Source: an archaeon
GTDB lineage: Archaea > Asgardarchaeota > Thorarchaeia > Thorarchaeales > Thorarchaeaceae
Assembly (NCBI GenBank): GCA_024276825.1
Contig: JAJRWI010000063.1
Location: 1-15,015, forward strand
Reading direction: 5' to 3'
Length of the DNA: 15,015 nt
The translations under genes and the position numbers were made by a program. Shown here piece by piece: positions 2-7,637 of the stretch. The first letter of the stretch is position 1. Each line of letters opens with the position of its first letter. The notes under the pieces are model-generated. The model made no database searches. It had not been told where the DNA came from and saw only the letters and a list, made by a program, of their open reading frames with translations.

Positions 2-667
2 TTCCTCATTCAGCACAACCTTGCCTCCTATGCAGCTACTCCTGGCACTATATTCCCAGGAATGGGCAATTTTGCCGCTGTCATTCTTGGTCCAGCTGGT
101 GCGCCTCTAGCTTGGTTCCTGATAGCAACTCCACTATATGCTAGTCTACTGGACTCGCCAAGCAATGCATTATGGGTCACAAGACCATTCCATGCAATGG
201 CTATGGACCGAATGTGTCCCGAGATCTTTGCTGATGTCCATCCCAAATATCATGTCCCGCACATCTCCCTGTACTATTGGTTGATAGTGCAGATTGTCAT
301 TGTGTTCACCACACTGTTTTACAATGTATATGTTGCAATCGGTGTGCTGTTCACCTATACATTCATCAGATGGCAATTCACACTGGTTGAGGTATCTCTG
401 CCATACTATCGACCGACATTATGGGAGCGAAGCGGTGCATGGACTATATTGGGCATTCCACTGATCTCGATTGCTGGTATAGTCAGTGGTGCCATATTCT
501 TCTATGCCTTGATTAGCTTCATTCCATCAGCGGGTATAGCATATGAAACTGTGTTTACTGTAGCACTCTACACGTTCGCACAGATCATGTACACCTACTA
601 TGGTGCAAAGAACAAGGCTAAAGGAATTGATATGGCAGCGATATTCGGTCAACTTCCTCCAGAGTAG
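2..667 (+). CDS. APC-family amino acid/polyamine permease, C-terminal part (5'-truncated by window edge)
   Basis: The frame is open from position 2 (FLIQHNLASYAATPGTIFPG-M...), so the ATG at 62 is internal. It has several hydrophobic TM segments, the APC-like segment 'TRPFHAMAMDRMCPEIFADVHPKYHVP' (R..fAma.Dr..P..f..vhp....P), and the C-terminus 'KAKGIDMAAIFGQLPPE' typical of archaeal APC permeases. Confidence 0.85.
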   Translation, partial: FLIQHNLASYAATPGTIFPGMGNFAAVILGPAGAPLAWFLIATPLYASLLDSPSNALWVTRPFHAMAMDRMCPEIFADVHPKYHVPHISLYYWLIVQIVIVFTTLFYNVYVAIGVLFTYTFIRWQFTLVEVSLPYYRPTLWERSGAWTILGIPLISIAGIVSGAIFFYALISFIPSAGIAYETVFTVALYTFAQIMYTYYGAKNKAKGIDMAAIFGQLPPE

Positions 668-735: not shown

Positions 736-1665
736 CTAGTCCTCTTCATCTTCAAAATCGAAAATTGGAGGAAATCCGTTTCGAGAGGCCTTACAAACAA
801 ATGGTTCCAGTTTGTCCCAAGAGCGATAGAATCGAGATGGGAATGACCATGGTCGAATAGTCATTAATTCAGGCACATCGTTAGATGATCTATAGAATTC
901 TAGTGCTTTTTTCGCCATTTCAAGAACACGCTTTCTCTCATCATCATCCCACACTTGCTGTCTGAATGTATATGCGTCTTCGTACCATTGGTAGAGAATC
1001 TCATAGTCATCAATGAATATGTTCTCAATAAGCCTCCAGGGCCAGAAAAGAGACATTTGCTCAAGTTGAACACCAGAGCCATAATGATTAATTGCCATTC
1101 CCTCTTTGCAGAAAATATAAACAGGACCTTTCTCACGCCATTTTTTCTCTCGGGGTTTTGTACTAGGCCCGCGATGAATCCAATCATACCAGTGCGCTTG
1201 GTAAGAATCCAGCACATCACAATGGTCCACTATATATTTGACTATTGCACTGGTTCCATGATGAGCAAGTCCTTTCACCATATCACGGCCAATATGTTCT
1301 CTAACAAGTTCTCTTACTCTATCTGCATCATCTTGTGGAAAATATGACCAGATTTGAAAATACTTGTTCTCCTTTAGCTTTTGAAATATAAACAGAATTG
1401 CAGCATTACCAATAGGTTTGAAATCACTTGGCAGTTCCTCATCGAGTGGCCAAGAATTGTCTTCTTTGCAAATAACTACTTCTGAGCAGTCCCAAGAAAT
1501 AACTTCTGACCAGGGGATGTCGTATACAATTGTGTATTTCTTTGTTCTCTTGCGTCGGGGGAGAGTGAATCTTATACCCTGTTGGCCAATTTTGGTTTCC
1601 GCTGTCCTCTTACTATAAGGATCATAGCCAACATAATCAGCTGCAAAATCTCGATGTTCTGCCAT
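736..1665 (-). CDS. Hypothetical soluble protein (309 aa), possibly two tandem PH-like domains
   Basis: Long ORF with GGAG a few nt upstream of the ATG, no TM segment and an acidic tail. It has two segments of the pattern G-[IM]-x-[FI]...PW-x-x-[VI], each followed later by D-D-x-x-x-R-V-x-E helices. Confidence 0.75.
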   Translation of the reverse strand: MAEHRDFAADYVGYDPYSKRTAETKIGQQGIRFTLPRRKRTKKYTIVYDIPWSEVISWDCSEVVICKEDNSWPLDEELPSDFKPIGNAAILFIFQKLKENKYFQIWSYFPQDDADRVRELVREHIGRDMVKGLAHHGTSAIVKYIVDHCDVLDSYQAHWYDWIHRGPSTKPREKKWREKGPVYIFCKEGMAINHYGSGVQLEQMSLFWPWRLIENIFIDDYEILYQWYEDAYTFRQQVWDDDERKRVLEMAKKALEFYRSSNDVPELMTIRPWSFPSRFYRSWDKLEPFVCKASRNGFPPIFDFEDEED

Positions 1666-1825
1666 TGATATTTCTCCGTTCTTTTAGGCTGTATTATGCT
1701 GCTTTTGAAGCCTTCGATTATTAAATCTCATTAATGTCCTCATTAGAAACAACTTAAGTTTAAGAATCTATGAGTAGAAATCTTAATTATATGGCTTGAG
1801 TGCAATTATTTGTGGTTCAGTAATA

Positions 1826-2527
1826 ATGAGTCATAAATTAAAGAAAGCCAAAAAGGAACCTTTGCGAATTGACCTCGATGATTTTGAGTTTGAACCATCG
1901 GGGCTTGATCTAAAATGGAGTAAGAATATCATCACAGTACTTGATGGTTATAGAATTCATCGTTGCTATGACCTTACATTTATCGAGAAGGGAGTTAGTG
2001 AGGGAGAACTCCCCAAGCAGTTTCTTAGACAGTGGAAGATTATTCGTACAGTTCTGCATAAATTTGCTGCAATTGGTCCAGAAGTACCCAATGTTAAAAA
2101 GTGGCTATTAAGAAGGCAGCTTATTCAGTTTTTCTCTCTGGTAACTTTCACAATCGCTTTGCCATTAATTGTCCTAACTTGGGTGTTAAGAATTTACGAT
2201 ATCATGTGGTTTACACTTCCGTTTGCAGCAGTTGGTGGAGGTCTTGTATTCGTTGCATGGACTGTTGGTGCATGGTACAACAGAAAGATTGCATGGGCCA
2301 TTGAACACTATATTCAGGAAAACAAGAACCTGTTGAGAAAAGAGAAGATCCACCTAAAGAAGTGGACGCAAAACCTGATTTGGCACACAGCTAGAATTAT
2401 GAGAAAAGAAGGGGCTGATCCAGAGAAGAATCTCATCAAATTCTTCAATAATGATTACAATGGAATTATCGTGGTCAAAGAACCTAATTGGTATCGAAAG
2501 CATTACACTGTTAAATTGAAGATTTAA
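1826..2527 (+). CDS. Hypothetical membrane protein with two central TM helices and basic soluble flanks
   Basis: ORF track gives 1796..2527 (TTG start). The in-frame ATG at 1826 (MSHKLKK), about 35 nt downstream of TTAATTATA, is the preferred start. Hydrophobic segments are 'FFSLVTFTIALPLIVLTWVL' and 'WFTLPFAAVGGGLVFVAWTVGAWY'. Confidence 0.75.
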   Translation: MSHKLKKAKKEPLRIDLDDFEFEPSGLDLKWSKNIITVLDGYRIHRCYDLTFIEKGVSEGELPKQFLRQWKIIRTVLHKFAAIGPEVPNVKKWLLRRQLIQFFSLVTFTIALPLIVLTWVLRIYDIMWFTLPFAAVGGGLVFVAWTVGAWYNRKIAWAIEHYIQENKNLLRKEKIHLKKWTQNLIWHTARIMRKEGADPEKNLIKFFNNDYNGIIVVKEPNWYRKHYTVKLKI

Positions 2528-2547: not shown

Positions 2548-3669
2548 TTATTTTTCCATCAATTCTTCAATAGGAGTATATTTTATATCAAATCCAAAAT
2601 GACTGGGACCCAATGCATCAAGTCCGTTTTTGCATCTGAGAATATCAGCTGCGGCAAGGCCTATAACTGCCACAGAATCTCTTTTCTTAATCTCTGTATT
2701 AGTAATGGGCATTCCCGTTTTTGCATCTATGACTTCAATAAGATCAGGGCTTGTTATCCAAGGTTGTTCATCCAACCATGTGATATGATTCTCGTTTTTA
2801 AACCAGATCTTCAGGACTTTGCCCTCATATTCATTTTCACCTTTTATGATAGTTTCACCCCACATATAACCCAACTTGTTTTCCCATGTTTTTTCAGCAA
2901 CTACTCCTTTGAAAAGGATCCATCCTTTCATTTTCTCAGCAATTGCAGCTGCAGGATCTTCATCAGTATTCTTACATTCTCGAATGATTGTTCCGACTTT
3001 CAATGCCATTGATAGAGTGTCTGGAATTATTGTTTCATGAAATTCTTTGCCAGTGATTGGAAATGCCACATTACCCAAACGGCCCCAAGCAACCTCACTA
3101 AGTGCCTTTGATATCTTCTCACCCATTTCGTAATTAATTACTTCACTTACAATTGTACTATTACCATACCAATCCACCAAAGCCATTGGAGCCATTGACT
3201 TCCCAAGCAAGCAGACTGTGTTCTGGCAAATCTCAGGCACAGCTCTACCTGCATAATCACCATCAATACAGAATATCCCATACCTTATGGCTGCATCAAT
3301 TGGTGCTGGCGTGTTCCCTCCTCCAAGTTCAAAAGGTGCCACAGCTTTGAATTTAATATCCATGAACTCTTCAAGAAGTTCGAGACCTCTCATAAGCTCT
3401 TTTCCAAAATAGCTCAGAGGAAATCTGTTTTTCTCTCGTTCAATTTCAGGTGTTGGAGGTGCGATGGTCCCAGAATAGAATGCACATGCAACCCAATCAT
3501 CGTCGCCAATATGACTTGGATCGCTTATTTTAATTTTCAAGTCGGATTCAAGAAGGTCATTAAGAATCTTAACGCCCGACTCTAAGGATCCTCCGCCTCC
3601 AGTTCCGTAGAAAGTACAACCGACAACGAAGTCCTTAACATCTTGTTTATTTTTCAATTCAAAGTCCAT
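2548..3669 (-). CDS. DUF917-family protein (putative hydrolase; paralogue 1)
   Basis: DUF917 motifs: GTGGGG near the N-terminus, PFELGGGN, DGDYAGRAVPE, FKNE, PDLI. The start was moved from 3699 to the ATG at 3669, which is preceded by the RBS-like GGAGTGA. Confidence 0.9.
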   Translation of the reverse strand: MDFELKNKQDVKDFVVGCTFYGTGGGGSLESGVKILNDLLESDLKIKISDPSHIGDDDWVACAFYSGTIAPPTPEIEREKNRFPLSYFGKELMRGLELLEEFMDIKFKAVAPFELGGGNTPAPIDAAIRYGIFCIDGDYAGRAVPEICQNTVCLLGKSMAPMALVDWYGNSTIVSEVINYEMGEKISKALSEVAWGRLGNVAFPITGKEFHETIIPDTLSMALKVGTIIRECKNTDEDPAAAIAEKMKGWILFKGVVAEKTWENKLGYMWGETIIKGENEYEGKVLKIWFKNENHITWLDEQPWITSPDLIEVIDAKTGMPITNTEIKKRDSVAVIGLAAADILRCKNGLDALGPSHFGFDIKYTPIEELMEK

Positions 3670-3754
3670 GATCAGATCACTCCAATGCAGAGTTATCATA
3701 AGTTAAACCGGTTATTAAATATGACTTTAACAGAATTTAATAAATTTACATGAT

Positions 3755-3804: not shown

Positions 3805-4746
3805 TTAAAGTTCGACCCGGCCAGCTTGGACCTTACCATCTTCAATTGTTATTACAAATCCCTTCAGGATGCCCTCTCGGTATTCAGAGCCAGGATTGAT
3901 ACACAATGTGCGTCCAATCTTGGTGAATCCAACAGACTCGTGAATATGTCCATGCATGCCTAGAAGTGGTTGGTATTTTTCAATTACAGCTCTGACAGAT
4001 TTACTTCCAACGGGACCTTGTTCTTGATATGCGCCCGTTCGTGCAATGGACATGTCCTTTTGTAAAATTGGTGCTGTATCGAGACCTGAATCATAGGGAG
4101 GATCATGAAAGTTGCAAAGCAGTTTGTCATAATCGCCAGAATCTACCCTAGCAAACTCCTCCTCAAGTTTGTCCATAAGCTCTTCATCAGGACATTCACG
4201 ATGCGTATCCCAAGGCGTAGAGTTGACCCATTCCAGACTGATTAGGGGATATCCATTCAGATCTACAACCCTTTTCAATGGATAAATAATCCTTTCATGA
4301 TTCTTGATAACATCATCAATTATATAATCGTCATCATTGCCCGGATTCACTACAACCTTAACACTTTCGTCAATTTTTTCAGTCGCCAAGTCAAGCCATT
4401 GCTGAAGTCGTTCAATCATTAGTCTATGAAATAGCTCTGTTATGGCACCAGGTGTTTCGCGTAGCTTAGCCAGTTCATCAGGTGTCATAATATACGGATA
4501 AAAGCCTTCATCCATTGTGAATTTAATAAACCGATCGAGGTCTTTCTTTTTCTTAAACACCTTCTTTTTGCCATATGGTTGGGCATACCAGCGGTCTTCC
4601 TTCTCTTGGATAATAGGCATTATCGCTTTGCCAGTAAGGTCTCCGCACATCATAGCAACATCTGCTTTGAAGACCTTTGGTGCTCTACACATCTTTTCCC
4701 AAGTCTGCTGACTTCCATGGGGATCGCAAGCTAGAAAGATTCTCAT
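3805..4746 (-). CDS. Calcineurin-like (Icc-related) metallophosphoesterase
   Basis: All five motifs are present: D-x-H (DPHG), GD (CGDL), GN-x-D (GNDD), H (FHDPP), GH-x-H (HGHIHE), plus a C-terminal 'INPGS'. GAGGT RBS lies upstream of the ATG. Confidence 0.92.
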   Translation of the reverse strand: MRIFLACDPHGSQQTWEKMCRAPKVFKADVAMMCGDLTGKAIMPIIQEKEDRWYAQPYGKKKVFKKKKDLDRFIKFTMDEGFYPYIMTPDELAKLRETPGAITELFHRLMIERLQQWLDLATEKIDESVKVVVNPGNDDDYIIDDVIKNHERIIYPLKRVVDLNGYPLISLEWVNSTPWDTHRECPDEELMDKLEEEFARVDSGDYDKLLCNFHDPPYDSGLDTAPILQKDMSIARTGAYQEQGPVGSKSVRAVIEKYQPLLGMHGHIHESVGFTKIGRTLCINPGSEYREGILKGFVITIEDGKVQAGRVEL

Positions 4747-4821
4747 ATTTGAACCTCAATTATTATTATTTCTTTAAGCTGCAGTAGCAAAACAACTTTA
4801 AGAGTTTAATGGTATGAAAAG

Positions 4822-4851
4822 TCCAACTTTACATAATATATTAAAGTTGGA
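4822..4851. promoter_or_regulatory. Perfect 10-bp inverted repeat (putative operator or back-to-back promoter elements) in the divergent intergenic region
   Basis: TCCAACTTTA-(10 nt)-TAAAGTTGGA is seen directly. It is intergenic if the downstream gene starts at TTG 4883. Confidence 0.5.
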
Positions 4852-4882
4852 AGTGAGTAGTTTATCAGCTGGTGAACTTAGA

Positions 4883-5680
4883 TTGTCGGGTAAGTATGGA
4901 CCAATACTTGATGATTTTCTTGATGAAGCATTAAGGATTGAGAAGGCGGCAGCAGAGAATGATATTCCATTAAGGATTATTGGTTGCCTTGCTTTTCGAT
5001 TAAAATGCCCAGAATATGTGGACCTTCATAAGAAAATGGGGCGTGAAGTCACGGACATTGATTTTATTAGTTATTACAAATATAACAAAAAAGTAAGGAA
5101 TCTTTTCCGAGATGAACTTGGGTATTATTGGGTTCCACCAGGCTTTGCAAGGGCCACAACCCTTAGGGACTTGTTCGTTGATAAAGAGCGGGGAAGAAAG
5201 ATAGATGTGTTTTACGATCAACTAGACTTTTGTCATTTAATCGAGTTTAAGAAGAGAAAACGATTGGACATTGAAAAGCCAACGATTCCTCTTGCTGAAT
5301 TATTCCTTGAAAAGACACAGATAGTCGAGATAAATGCTAAGGATTTGAAGGACCTTGTCATTATGTTTTTGAAATATGATGTTACTTCCGAAGATGATGA
5401 TTCTCAGATTAATGGATATTATATATCGAAGCTTCTTGCAGATGACTGGGGCTTCTATTATACGGTTACTGAAAATATCAAGAAATTCATCAACTTTCTT
5501 GATAGTGTTGAACATCTCACCGAAGAACAGAAGAAACTGATAATGAAACGGGCACTAAAGTTGCGAGTGATGATAGAAGATGAGCCAAAATCGAGGGGGT
5601 GGAAACGAAGAGCACGGATTGGGACAAAGAAGCGCTGGTATAAGATAGTTCATTCAATGGATGGAACAACTAAGCTGTAA
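4883..5680 (+). CDS. Uncharacterised protein with a pol-beta-superfamily nucleotidyltransferase-like N-terminus
   Basis: 'LRIIGCLAFRL...REVTDIDFI' matches hG[GS]xA...DxD, with a third acidic strand 'KIDVF'; C-terminal half is helical. The TTG at 4883 is in frame with the 4814 ORF and preceded by GGTGA (4871-4875), so it is the preferred start. Confidence 0.7.
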   Translation: MSGKYGPILDDFLDEALRIEKAAAENDIPLRIIGCLAFRLKCPEYVDLHKKMGREVTDIDFISYYKYNKKVRNLFRDELGYYWVPPGFARATTLRDLFVDKERGRKIDVFYDQLDFCHLIEFKKRKRLDIEKPTIPLAELFLEKTQIVEINAKDLKDLVIMFLKYDVTSEDDDSQINGYYISKLLADDWGFYYTVTENIKKFINFLDSVEHLTEEQKKLIMKRALKLRVMIEDEPKSRGWKRRARIGTKKRWYKIVHSMDGTTKL

Positions 5681-5710: not shown

Positions 5711-6829
5711 ATGAAACTGTCTAAGGAAGAAGCACTGGACATGCTCATTGGCGTCGGAATATTCGGGACCGGTGGCGGTGGTGACCCAGAACACTTTGGC
5801 AAGCCAATGATAAATTGGGACTATGACAAGGGCCGAATGTACGAACTCATCGATCCCAAGGACGTTGCTGATGATGCATTCATAACATGTGGTGGCTACA
5901 TGGGTTCTGTTAAGGCCTTTACTTCAATTGGTGATCTTCTTGAAACGTGGGAAGAAAGATATGAACTGTTTGAAACTCTCAAAATAACCGAGTCCATTAC
6001 TGGTAAGAAAGTTAACCATCTGGTACCATTTGAGCTCGGTGGAGTTAATACAACAGTAATGTTGTCCCTAGCCGCAAGGGCCAAAATCACAACAATTGAC
6101 GGTGATGGTCTCGGCAGGTCTGCTCCTGAAACACAGATGATATCATTTGTTGGGTATGACATCTCATTATGTCCAATGCCAGTTGTAACAAGGGGAGGTA
6201 GTATTGTTATTGTAGAGAAAGCTTCAACTCCTGCATTGGCTGACGAGATTGGCAGATTTGCCGTGGTAAATGATGGTGGTGCTGGTGCAAATAATCATTA
6301 CTATCAGACTGGTGCCCAACTGAAGAAGAGTGTGATTCCCAATAGTATCTCGTTATCAATTCAGATTGGGTCAGCTGTGAAGGATGCAAACAAGTCTGGT
6401 AATGATCCAATTGACAGCTTTATTGATATAACAAAGGGCAAGATTCTCGCAAAAGGCACTGTATCAAGTGTTAAGGGTGAGGACAAAGCAGGCCATTGGC
6501 ATGTATTGGCAACAATTGATTCCAAAGATCACGAAGGTGTGATTCAGCTAGTCATCAAGAATGAATACATGATGCTCCTCTGTGATAGCAAACCAGTGGT
6601 CATGTTCCCTGACCTCATTTGTCTTCATTATCCTGACACTGGATATGGAGTCATGAGTGCAGATCTTAGAGAAGGAATGGATGTCGTGATAACTGCAGTT
6701 CCTGCCCATGAACGCCTTAGATATGCTGGATCAACAGAAGTGGGTAAGCAGGCCTTCTCTCCAGAGAGGTATGGATATCCTGAATTGACCTACAAGCCCA
6801 TGGAAGATATCCTAAAGAACCTTCATTAA
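5711..6829 (+). CDS. DUF917-family protein (putative hydrolase; paralogue 2)
   Basis: DUF917 motifs: GTGGGGDP, PFELGGVN, DGDGLGRSAPE, IKNE, PDLI. It starts 30 nt downstream of the NTase-like gene. Confidence 0.9.
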   Translation: MKLSKEEALDMLIGVGIFGTGGGGDPEHFGKPMINWDYDKGRMYELIDPKDVADDAFITCGGYMGSVKAFTSIGDLLETWEERYELFETLKITESITGKKVNHLVPFELGGVNTTVMLSLAARAKITTIDGDGLGRSAPETQMISFVGYDISLCPMPVVTRGGSIVIVEKASTPALADEIGRFAVVNDGGAGANNHYYQTGAQLKKSVIPNSISLSIQIGSAVKDANKSGNDPIDSFIDITKGKILAKGTVSSVKGEDKAGHWHVLATIDSKDHEGVIQLVIKNEYMMLLCDSKPVVMFPDLICLHYPDTGYGVMSADLREGMDVVITAVPAHERLRYAGSTEVGKQAFSPERYGYPELTYKPMEDILKNLH

Positions 6830-6872
6830 GACCAACATCAGAATAAACATATCCTCTATGTGGGGTTTGAAA

Positions 6873-7637
6873 ATGAAGACTATCGGTCTGGTGGGCGCAA
6901 CAGGTCTAGACTGGATGCAAAACGAGAGAAAGTGGCAATTTGTTATTGATAACACTCCTAAAGGCTTTAGGATTAAGAGCTACATTCCAAGATTTGGTAC
7001 TCATAGTATCGAGTCCAGGGTTGATGAAACTTACAATGCACCGTTTATCCTTGAAAAGATTGTAGAAGCCAACAGAGACAAGGTGGATGCAATAGTCATA
7101 GATTGCGTATGTGATCCAATCCTTGATGCAGCTTGCGAGATATCCAATGTTCCTGTAATTGGTCCATTGAATGCTTCGTTGCATGTTGCTCTTACTCTTG
7201 GTAATAGATTTGGAGTGATAACAGTACAAGGTCTTTCATTGATTAAATGTCTTGAAGAAAAAATCCGAAAATATGGACTGAAAGCTTTTCTGGCTGACAT
7301 TGGGTACATAACCATGCCAGTTCTCGAGATTGCAGATAGGCCCAAAGAGGCACAGAATGAGATAATAAGAATTGGCAGTGAGATGGTAGAAAGCACAGGT
7401 GTCGAGATTATAATTCTGGGATGCACTGGACTTTCCCATGAAGTTGACATTAAGAAGATCTCAGAAAAACTAAACTTGCCAGTATTGGATCCATTCATAG
7501 TCGCAGTGAATTATGCTGCATTTCTCGTCAATTCGAATCTCACTCAAAGCAAGATTGCATATCCTATACCCCCAAAGAAGAAGATTACGGAACCTCCAAG
7601 TCTTAAGGACATATTTAATGATGTTCTAAGAGAATAG
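6873..7637 (+). CDS. Asp/Glu/hydantoin racemase family protein (hydantoin/allantoin racemase-like)
   Basis: 'SIES..DE', first catalytic Cys in 'DAIVIDCVCDP', second in 'IILGCTGL', and 'LPVLDP'. The ATG at 6873 follows GGGGT (ORF track start is 6858). Confidence 0.9.
   Translation: MKTIGLVGATGLDWMQNERKWQFVIDNTPKGFRIKSYIPRFGTHSIESRVDETYNAPFILEKIVEANRDKVDAIVIDCVCDPILDAACEISNVPVIGPLNASLHVALTLGNRFGVITVQGLSLIKCLEEKIRKYGLKAFLADIGYITMPVLEIADRPKEAQNEIIRIGSEMVESTGVEIIILGCTGLSHEVDIKKISEKLNLPVLDPFIVAVNYAAFLVNSNLTQSKIAYPIPPKKKITEPPSLKDIFNDVLRE

Follow-up and report, generated by a model that had tools for sequence, protein, structure and literature searches.

A permease, a metallophosphoesterase, and a predicted nucleotidyltransferase form a conserved three-gene unit in Asgard archaea and beyond

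Why do the genes of a metallophosphoesterase (MPE) and of a nucleotidyltransferase-fold protein (NT) lie head to head among catabolic genes of an Asgard archaeon, and what do the two enzymes serve? The locus lies on a 15,015-bp contig (C57) of a genome that is 98% complete (G000); the window analyzed here is this whole contig, and the closest relatives of its proteins carry the label Candidatus Thorarchaeota (an Asgard group). MPE (313 aa; assigned from motifs, PF00149, and a structural model) occupies positions 3805-4746 of the reverse strand, and NT (265 aa, TTG start; assigned from conserved catalytic residues and a model) positions 4883-5680 of the forward strand. An earlier note on this locus had read the pair as a possible writer and eraser of nucleotidyl marks, or as maker and degrader of a nucleotide messenger, with a tie to an APC-family permease. 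We find that the permease, MPE, and NT form a three-gene module, co-localized in the window and co-occurring across genomes, and that the three genes are gained, lost, and diverging together across Asgard archaea. As a tentative reading, to which we give a probability of roughly 45%, MPE and NT assist or regulate the permease within a conserved three-gene uptake unit.

Conservation of the permease, MPE, and NT genes as a unit

The window genome contains one NT, one family-specific MPE, and one permease of the tail type described below, all at this locus. The same genes recur beside distant NT homologues (41-49% identity), where an APC permease of ~530-610 aa, an MPE of ~315 aa, and NT stand together in shuffled order and orientation; the neighboring MPEs belong to the same subfamily as the window MPE, with 36-72% identity to it. 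Counting from NT, in 40 regions from Asgard genomes of many families that hold 42 NT genes, an MPE lies within ~9 kb of 35 and within 300 bp of 30, and a permease is present for 33. The NT-MPE orientation is divergent in 20 cases, tandem on the same strand in 12, and convergent in 3. Counting from MPE, we collected 80 loci through the MPE alignment, with one genome per species from Archaea and Bacteria, among which 42 MPE genes have at least 5 kb of sequence on both sides; a permease lies within 5 kb of 38 of these well-flanked genes (adjacent in 27), NT of 29, and both of 26. Archaeal carriers beyond Asgard include Bathyarchaeia, other Thermoproteota, Methanomethylicia, and Aenigmatarchaeota, and bacterial carriers include Chloroflexota (among them the cultured Thermomicrobium sp. 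CFH 73360, L069), Actinomycetota (among them Nonomuraea jiangxiensis, L123), Dormiibacterota, and Thermodesulfobacteriota.

Presence and absence follow the same pattern. Among 301 Asgard genomes, NT and MPE occur together in 103, NT alone in 5 (all 72-87% complete), MPE alone in 3, and neither in 190. The tallies of the two genes match by family (f1, 54 vs 52 of 76 genomes; f5, 0 vs 0 of 28; f9, 0 vs 0 of 68; f22, 14 vs 14 of 21), and the tail-type permease tracks the same Asgard families; extra weak permease matches in f9 (E 1e-21 to 1e-28) represent another permease type. The distribution is patchy, and the unit was not found in the other two genomes assigned to the genus of the window (86% and 88% complete). 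One genome (G076; loci L130, L131, and L039) retains all three genes although each is on a contig of its own, with 5-9 kb flanks free of the other two, which shows that a dispersed module can be kept. The earlier note had named a failure of the two genes to co-occur as what would overturn its proposal; they do co-occur, usually as neighbors, and the link of the pair to the permease, by profiling as well as adjacency, is real. Its suggestion of similar trios in other archaea proved correct at the distant loci.

The three proteins also diverge in parallel. Across 66 modules, the correlation of distance matrices was 0.90 for MPE and permease, 0.73 for MPE and NT, and 0.76 for NT and permease, with 0 of 2000 permutations as high, figures that shared ancestry inflates across related genomes. 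Even so, several genomes have more than one diverged module, and within these the three genes fall into matching types, as in the two Thorarchaeota types of L040/L041 and L010-L012.

Two module types can be told apart in Thorarchaeota. In type 1, which has a pair of DUF917 genes, the permease is ~3.2 kb away; in type 2 it is ~0.9 kb away and ends in SLPPE or SLTPE. Both types lie on one contig, ~11-14 kb apart, in G134 (C420; L040/L041), and the coordinates suggest the same arrangement in G248, G167, and G269. At another locus (L019, G012:C1:1911169-1913330), two NT genes in tandem accompany a single MPE and a single permease, and both NT matches contain one in-frame TAG each. The NT copies without a nearby MPE (L022, L024, L035, L039) are found in unrelated contexts that give no functional hint: a histidine kinase, a sugar-isomerase-like TIM barrel with PEBP, the E and C subunits of an A/V-ATPase, and a B3_4-domain gene. 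Of these, the solo NT paralogue at L035:8898-9758, flanked by the two A/V-type ATPase subunit genes, also adjoins a P-type cation ATPase.

Predicted activities of NT and MPE

The NT protein itself has no match in Pfam, NCBIfam, or PDB sequences, yet it belongs to a large family, with 1682 relatives (clusters at 50% identity, E ≤ 1e-3). Alignment A1, which covers 71 members with identities as low as 30%, shows R54, D58, D60, H118, K144, Q146, D157, W189, R243, and W252 to be invariant and G34, D108, and D112 to be at least 90% conserved. Judged from this alignment, G34 (codon 4982-4984), D58 and D60 (5054-5056 and 5060-5062), and D108 (5204-5206) correspond to the glycine, DxD, and third-carboxylate positions of Pol-beta-type transferases, in keeping with the hG[GS]/[DE]x[DE] signature of that superfamily. 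The family profile weakly matches AadB across the G...DxD region (E 0.17), and the window NT has no match to PF08843 (AbiEii/MenT toxins), its neighbors being MPE, DUF917 genes, and the permease.

The AlphaFold2 model of NT (mean predicted local distance difference test, pLDDT, 94.8; predicted TM-score, pTM, 0.92) adopts a Pol-beta-superfamily nucleotidyltransferase fold, and its top Foldseek matches are all nucleotidyltransferases (NTases). With VIA, a structural aligner independent of Foldseek, high Z scores were obtained for ANT(2'')-Ia (11.8), MenT1 (11.8), 5uvd (10.5), LnuA (10.1), TglT (9.9), JHP933 (9.7), and MenT4 (8.4). An extra conserved helical part follows at the C-terminus. NT is thus predicted from its model to be a catalytically competent member of a small ANT/Lnu/MenT-like branch, outside any curated family. 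The motifs from which an NTase had been read in the earlier note (IIGCLA, TDIDF, KIDVF) are all present, and both outcomes that would have spoken against it, a different fold and a DxD that varies among homologues, were looked for and not seen. No fused form of 505 aa or longer was found in our search, which is weak evidence. One relative of 396 aa (P0247) carries a MarR-type winged helix-turn-helix domain fused N-terminally to the NT domain.

For MPE, Pfam support is weak (PF00149, 21.8 bits vs a cut-off of 21.5, and a weak match to PF14582), and the motifs and the model are clear. Fourteen relatives keep D8-x-H10, G35-D36, G136-N137-D138-D139, H214, and G266-H267-x-H269, and in alignment A2 each of the seven metal ligands (D8, H10, D36, N137, H214, H267, H269) is either invariant or conserved at 90% or more, so that the binuclear metal site is intact by sequence, in line with the intact enzyme described in the earlier note. 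The third motif reads GNDD where GNH[DE] is usual; variants that lack this histidine are typical of phosphodiesterases of the YfcE/MJ0936 type. Between motifs II and III lies an insertion of ~90 residues (about 40-125) with conserved P44, G81, Y83, F106, W117, and E123. The AlphaFold2 model (pLDDT 94.5) gave 106 PDB matches at E ≤ 1e-3 in Foldseek, of which those listed among the top 50 are MPE-fold proteins, with aq_1956 (2yvt, E 3.6e-11) and TT1561 (1uf3, E 1.2e-8) the best and Mre11/SbcD, purple acid phosphatase, LpxH, YmdB, and Rv0805 lower. With these motifs and the beta-sandwich fold, MPE is a member of the calcineurin-like metallophosphoesterase superfamily. For its family, a word-index search gave more than 7500 matches at E ≤ 1e-3.

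These structural neighbors bear on two other explanations of the pair. NT might make a nucleotide signal that MPE degrades and that the permease or neighboring regulators sense, as suggested by the first Foldseek match of NT by E-value, the CD-NTase CdnE (6wt9), by the presence of Rv0805, a cyclic-nucleotide phosphodiesterase, among the MPE matches, and by the tight NT/MPE presence/absence pattern. The CdnE match is poor, however (TM-score 0.27, root-mean-square deviation 15), and absent from the top VIA matches, whereas the best NT matches (MenT, ANT, LnuA) transfer a nucleoside monophosphate (NMP) to an acceptor rather than cyclize it. Pfam identifies no known receptor domain in the locus, and MPE-permease pairs exist without NT. 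Messenger signaling, one of the two readings of the earlier note, is quite improbable on this evidence.

The same likeness to MenT1, TglT, and MenT4, together with weak PF08843 (AbiEii) matches in 2 of the 71 NT relatives, raises the prospect of a toxin-antitoxin or defense pair, with NT as a MenT/AbiEii-like toxin that blocks tRNA and MPE as its antidote. This we regard as very improbable, given that no AbiEi/MenA-type antitoxin gene is adjacent and that the pair is consistently tied to a permease and catabolic genes. PADLOC matches are weak and generic (NT, E 0.004; MPE, 1.2e-9 to a candidate family), and the NT family, with a median isoelectric point of 6.4, is not consistently basic.

Neighboring genes, permease tail, and divergent spacer

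The genes that surround the trio vary from locus to locus. A DUF917 pair and a racemase gene flank MPE and NT solely in Thorarchaeota-type loci (at least 13) and in one Bathyarchaeia locus; elsewhere, the flanks hold class-III aminotransferases, GlnA-like, GATase, AlaDH, Fe-ADH, and aldehyde dehydrogenase genes, as well as proline racemase with ornithine cyclodeaminase, a glycyl-radical enzyme, creatininase, and a PF04199 cyclase. The DUF917 genes are therefore lineage-specific cargo outside the conserved core, and the racemase is part of the same local catabolic cargo. Because the trio is constant while its catabolic neighbors change, we infer that MPE and NT serve the permease and not one pathway, and this is our main argument for the reading given above. 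The PF04199 "putative cyclase", which we take to be of a kynurenine-formamidase-like amidohydrolase family, lies in or beside the module in Thermomicrobium (L069:10936-11595, in the order NT-MPE-cyclase-APC-APC) and at a distant archaeal locus (L003:5222-5875), and may be an occasional fourth member.

In the window, only the C-terminal 221 residues of the permease are encoded (positions 2-667, forward strand), the gene being truncated by the contig start. It was identified by synteny with the L001 locus, where the full-length gene of 563 aa matches PF00324. Another contig of the same genome apparently ends in the missing N-terminal part (G000:C64:33-887), and C57 and C64 are therefore probably neighbors. 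In alignment A3, the window protein has the C-terminal end KGIDMAAIFGQLPPE (about 623-664), which terminates as ...GID..F..LPPE. This conforms to a tail found in ~90 module-linked permeases from Asgard archaea to Actinomycetota, (K/R)xxG(I/V)(D/P)x6(Y/F)xE(I/L)P(P/V)(E/A/D)-COOH. NT is nearby for 25 of 27 permeases that end in PPE and for 6 of 14 that end in PVE; we rejected this variant as evidence on NT presence, the PVE set coming mostly from one Chloroflexota lineage. In Asgard genomes without NT and MPE (L134, L135, L137), the permeases end in KKGID..EIC..IPEE(T/V)LEV(V).

Between the permease and the first DUF917 gene, two hypothetical genes without a Pfam match occupy 736-1665 (reverse strand) and 1796-2527 (forward strand); at the same position, L001 has unannotated genes of other sizes. 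Downstream of MPE follows a DUF917 (S-Me-THD-like) paralogue (2548-3699, reverse strand; PF06032 and PF20906, E 3e-39 and 6e-52), and downstream of NT a second one (5711-6829, forward strand; same families, E 4e-34 and 2e-37), both consisting of S-Me-THD_N and S-Me-THD_C domains (E 1e-34 to 1e-52). An Asp/Glu/hydantoin racemase-family gene comes next (6858-7637, forward strand; PF01177, E 6e-36), and MFS, luciferase-like, and AFOR genes lie beyond it. Open reading frames and Pfam agree on the symmetric layout, with one DUF917 gene behind each of the two divergent genes, that the earlier note had described, and at least 13 other Thorarchaeota-type loci share it; the symmetry is real, but as Thorarchaeota-type cargo it is not part of the conserved unit.

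The open reading frame of NT opens at ATG 4814, upstream of the start used here. TTG 4883 is the correct start because it aligns with ATG in five Thorarchaeota orthologues and has the conserved GGTGA (4871-4875) 7 nt upstream; the codons after the start encode (S/T)GKYG. ATG 4814 stands directly after the conserved non-coding motif TTTAAnAGTTTAATGGT (4796-4813) in an alignment of 13 orthologous spacers, and the sequence 3' of it is unconserved and variable in length until conservation returns at the codon aligned with TTG 4883. The spacer from which MPE and NT diverge therefore spans 4747-4882 (136 nt), matching the ~135-nt region and the TTG start that were originally given. The 13 Thorarchaeota spacers share two A/T motifs, CTTTAAGAGTTTAATGGT at 4796-4813 and ATATTAAAGT at 4838-4847, the latter ~36-45 nt before the NT start, and the length of the sequence between them varies. 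Both resemble archaeal TATA boxes, which suggests a putative promoter role; they are probably TATA elements with transcription factor B recognition elements (TATA/BRE), or else an operator.

Role of the two enzymes and comparison with known systems

In the likeliest mechanism for accessory or regulatory enzymes of the permease, MPE would act as a phosphodiesterase at the cytoplasmic face of the permease. NT would move NMP from a nucleoside triphosphate to a hydroxyl of a transport-linked protein or small ligand, MPE would hydrolyze the resulting phosphodiester, and this would switch or tune the uptake of amine or amino-acid nutrients. In this Thorarchaeon, the unit may feed the cluster of two DUF917 genes and a racemase, probably for a cyclic-amide or hydantoin-like compound. 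A more specific version, in which the three proteins assemble into a complex that gates transport through reversible nucleotidylation of the permease, MPE, or a bound ligand, is somewhat unlikely in our estimate; a complex prediction with MPE, NT, and only the last 35 permease residues returned no verdict (score 0.00) and speaks neither for nor against binding.

Besides the inflation of the correlations by shared ancestry, several observations weigh against the regulatory role. No nucleotidylation target was identified, and the permease tail contains no conserved Ser, Thr, or Tyr, its aromatic position alternating between Y and F; near-invariant hydroxyls of the permease are limited to S/T13, in the N-terminal F-x-R-x-A-[ST]-G-L, and Y85, which presumably sit in motifs general to APC transporters. 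A related tail, KKGID..EIC..IPEE followed by 4-5 residues, occurs in permeases of genomes without NT and MPE. The tail is accordingly not unique to the module, an idea that we rejected; it is a trait of the subfamily and does not prove a docking site. Of the three links, that between MPE and permease is the tightest, ahead of that of either to NT, and 13 of the 42 well-flanked MPE loci, mostly from Anaerolineae, have no NT within 5 kb, so that MPE has a role independent of a neighboring NT. That the "eraser" is kept where its "writer" is missing speaks against strict pairing of the two. The nucleotidylation cycle first proposed therefore stands in part: the fold, the DxD, the co-occurrence, and the permease link hold, strict pairing is weakened, and the cycle as a whole stays an inference.

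Some of the same observations would suit a role of the enzymes in processing the transported compound, in which amines or amino acids would enter through the permease as phosphoesters, phosphodiesters, or nucleotide conjugates (e.g., of head-group type), MPE would free the amine at the inner face, and NT would re-activate or trap an intermediate by nucleotidylating it, in the manner of small-molecule O-nucleotidyltransferases. The nearest structures to NT include the small-molecule transferases ANT(2'')-Ia and LnuA, and MPE groups with phosphodiesterase- and nuclease-type MPEs and not with PPP protein phosphatases. The closeness of MPE and permease, whose genes often abut or overlap, and the pairs of the two without NT fit as well. 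Against this role, the pathways encoded nearby differ widely in their chemistry (hydantoin racemase/DUF917, proline racemase/ornithine cyclodeaminase, creatininase, Puu-like genes), and a phosphoester step is required in none of them. The usual substrates of APC permeases are amino compounds of cationic or zwitterionic character, and NT is left without a clear role. We consider cargo processing unlikely and retain regulation or assistance of the permease as the preferred reading.

Whichever way the enzymes act, the findings connect two large families without assigned function to one particular permease subfamily, in Archaea and Bacteria alike. If their task is to control transport or to complete it, they would represent a new principle in the regulation of nutrient uptake and would give functional context to many "hypothetical" genes of uncultured archaea; a gated complex, if true, would be a novel control of nutrient uptake common to Asgard and other archaea, Chloroflexota, and Actinomycetota. 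The cultured carriers Thermomicrobium sp. CFH 73360 and Nonomuraea jiangxiensis make the unit directly testable. Our literature search found no functional study on the trio, PF14907/NTP_transf_5, TT1561, aq_1956, or COG2129. The permease-MPE-NT unit is an undescribed, widely conserved association in which each protein belongs to a known superfamily.

Among characterized proteins, ANT(2'')-Ia (AadB; 4xje, 153 residues aligned, root-mean-square deviation 3.2) and LnuA (4wh5) share with NT a minimal Pol-beta core and a helical C-terminal domain. In contrast to these enzymes, with which it has 12-16% identity, NT is ~90 residues longer, its extra C-terminal helical part including W189, R243, and W252, and it is linked to a permease and MPE, without an antibiotic context. 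MenT/AbiEii proteins (DUF1814, PF08843; MenT1, 8an4) fall in the same NTase subgroup, but NT lacks an antitoxin partner and stands in a context of nutrient uptake rather than in a toxin-antitoxin locus. PF14907 (NTP_transf_5, "uncharacterised nucleotidyltransferase"), which presumably shares the pattern G...R...DIDh with NT, is weakly matched by 28 of the 71 NT relatives (best E 1.2e-6; P0241 reaches 19.7 bits vs a gathering cut-off of 31.2) and not by the window NT at E ≤ 10. The closest MPE structures, the uncharacterized PF14582-type proteins aq_1956 and TT1561, have 13-14% identity to MPE and, at 226-257 residues, do not cover its ~90-residue insertion.

As a system, the unit invites comparison with AmtB-GlnK-GlnD, in which AmtB is a channel, GlnK a PII regulator, and GlnD a Pol-beta-type uridylyltransferase with a removing domain. 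The unit differs in having no PII protein, removal would fall to a separate MPE instead of an HD domain, and the sequence relation is limited to the NTase fold. The analogy is functional only and rests on the genes: a transporter gene is tied to a system of nucleotidyl transfer and removal that tunes the uptake of a nitrogen compound in AmtB-GlnK-GlnD and would do so in the unit.

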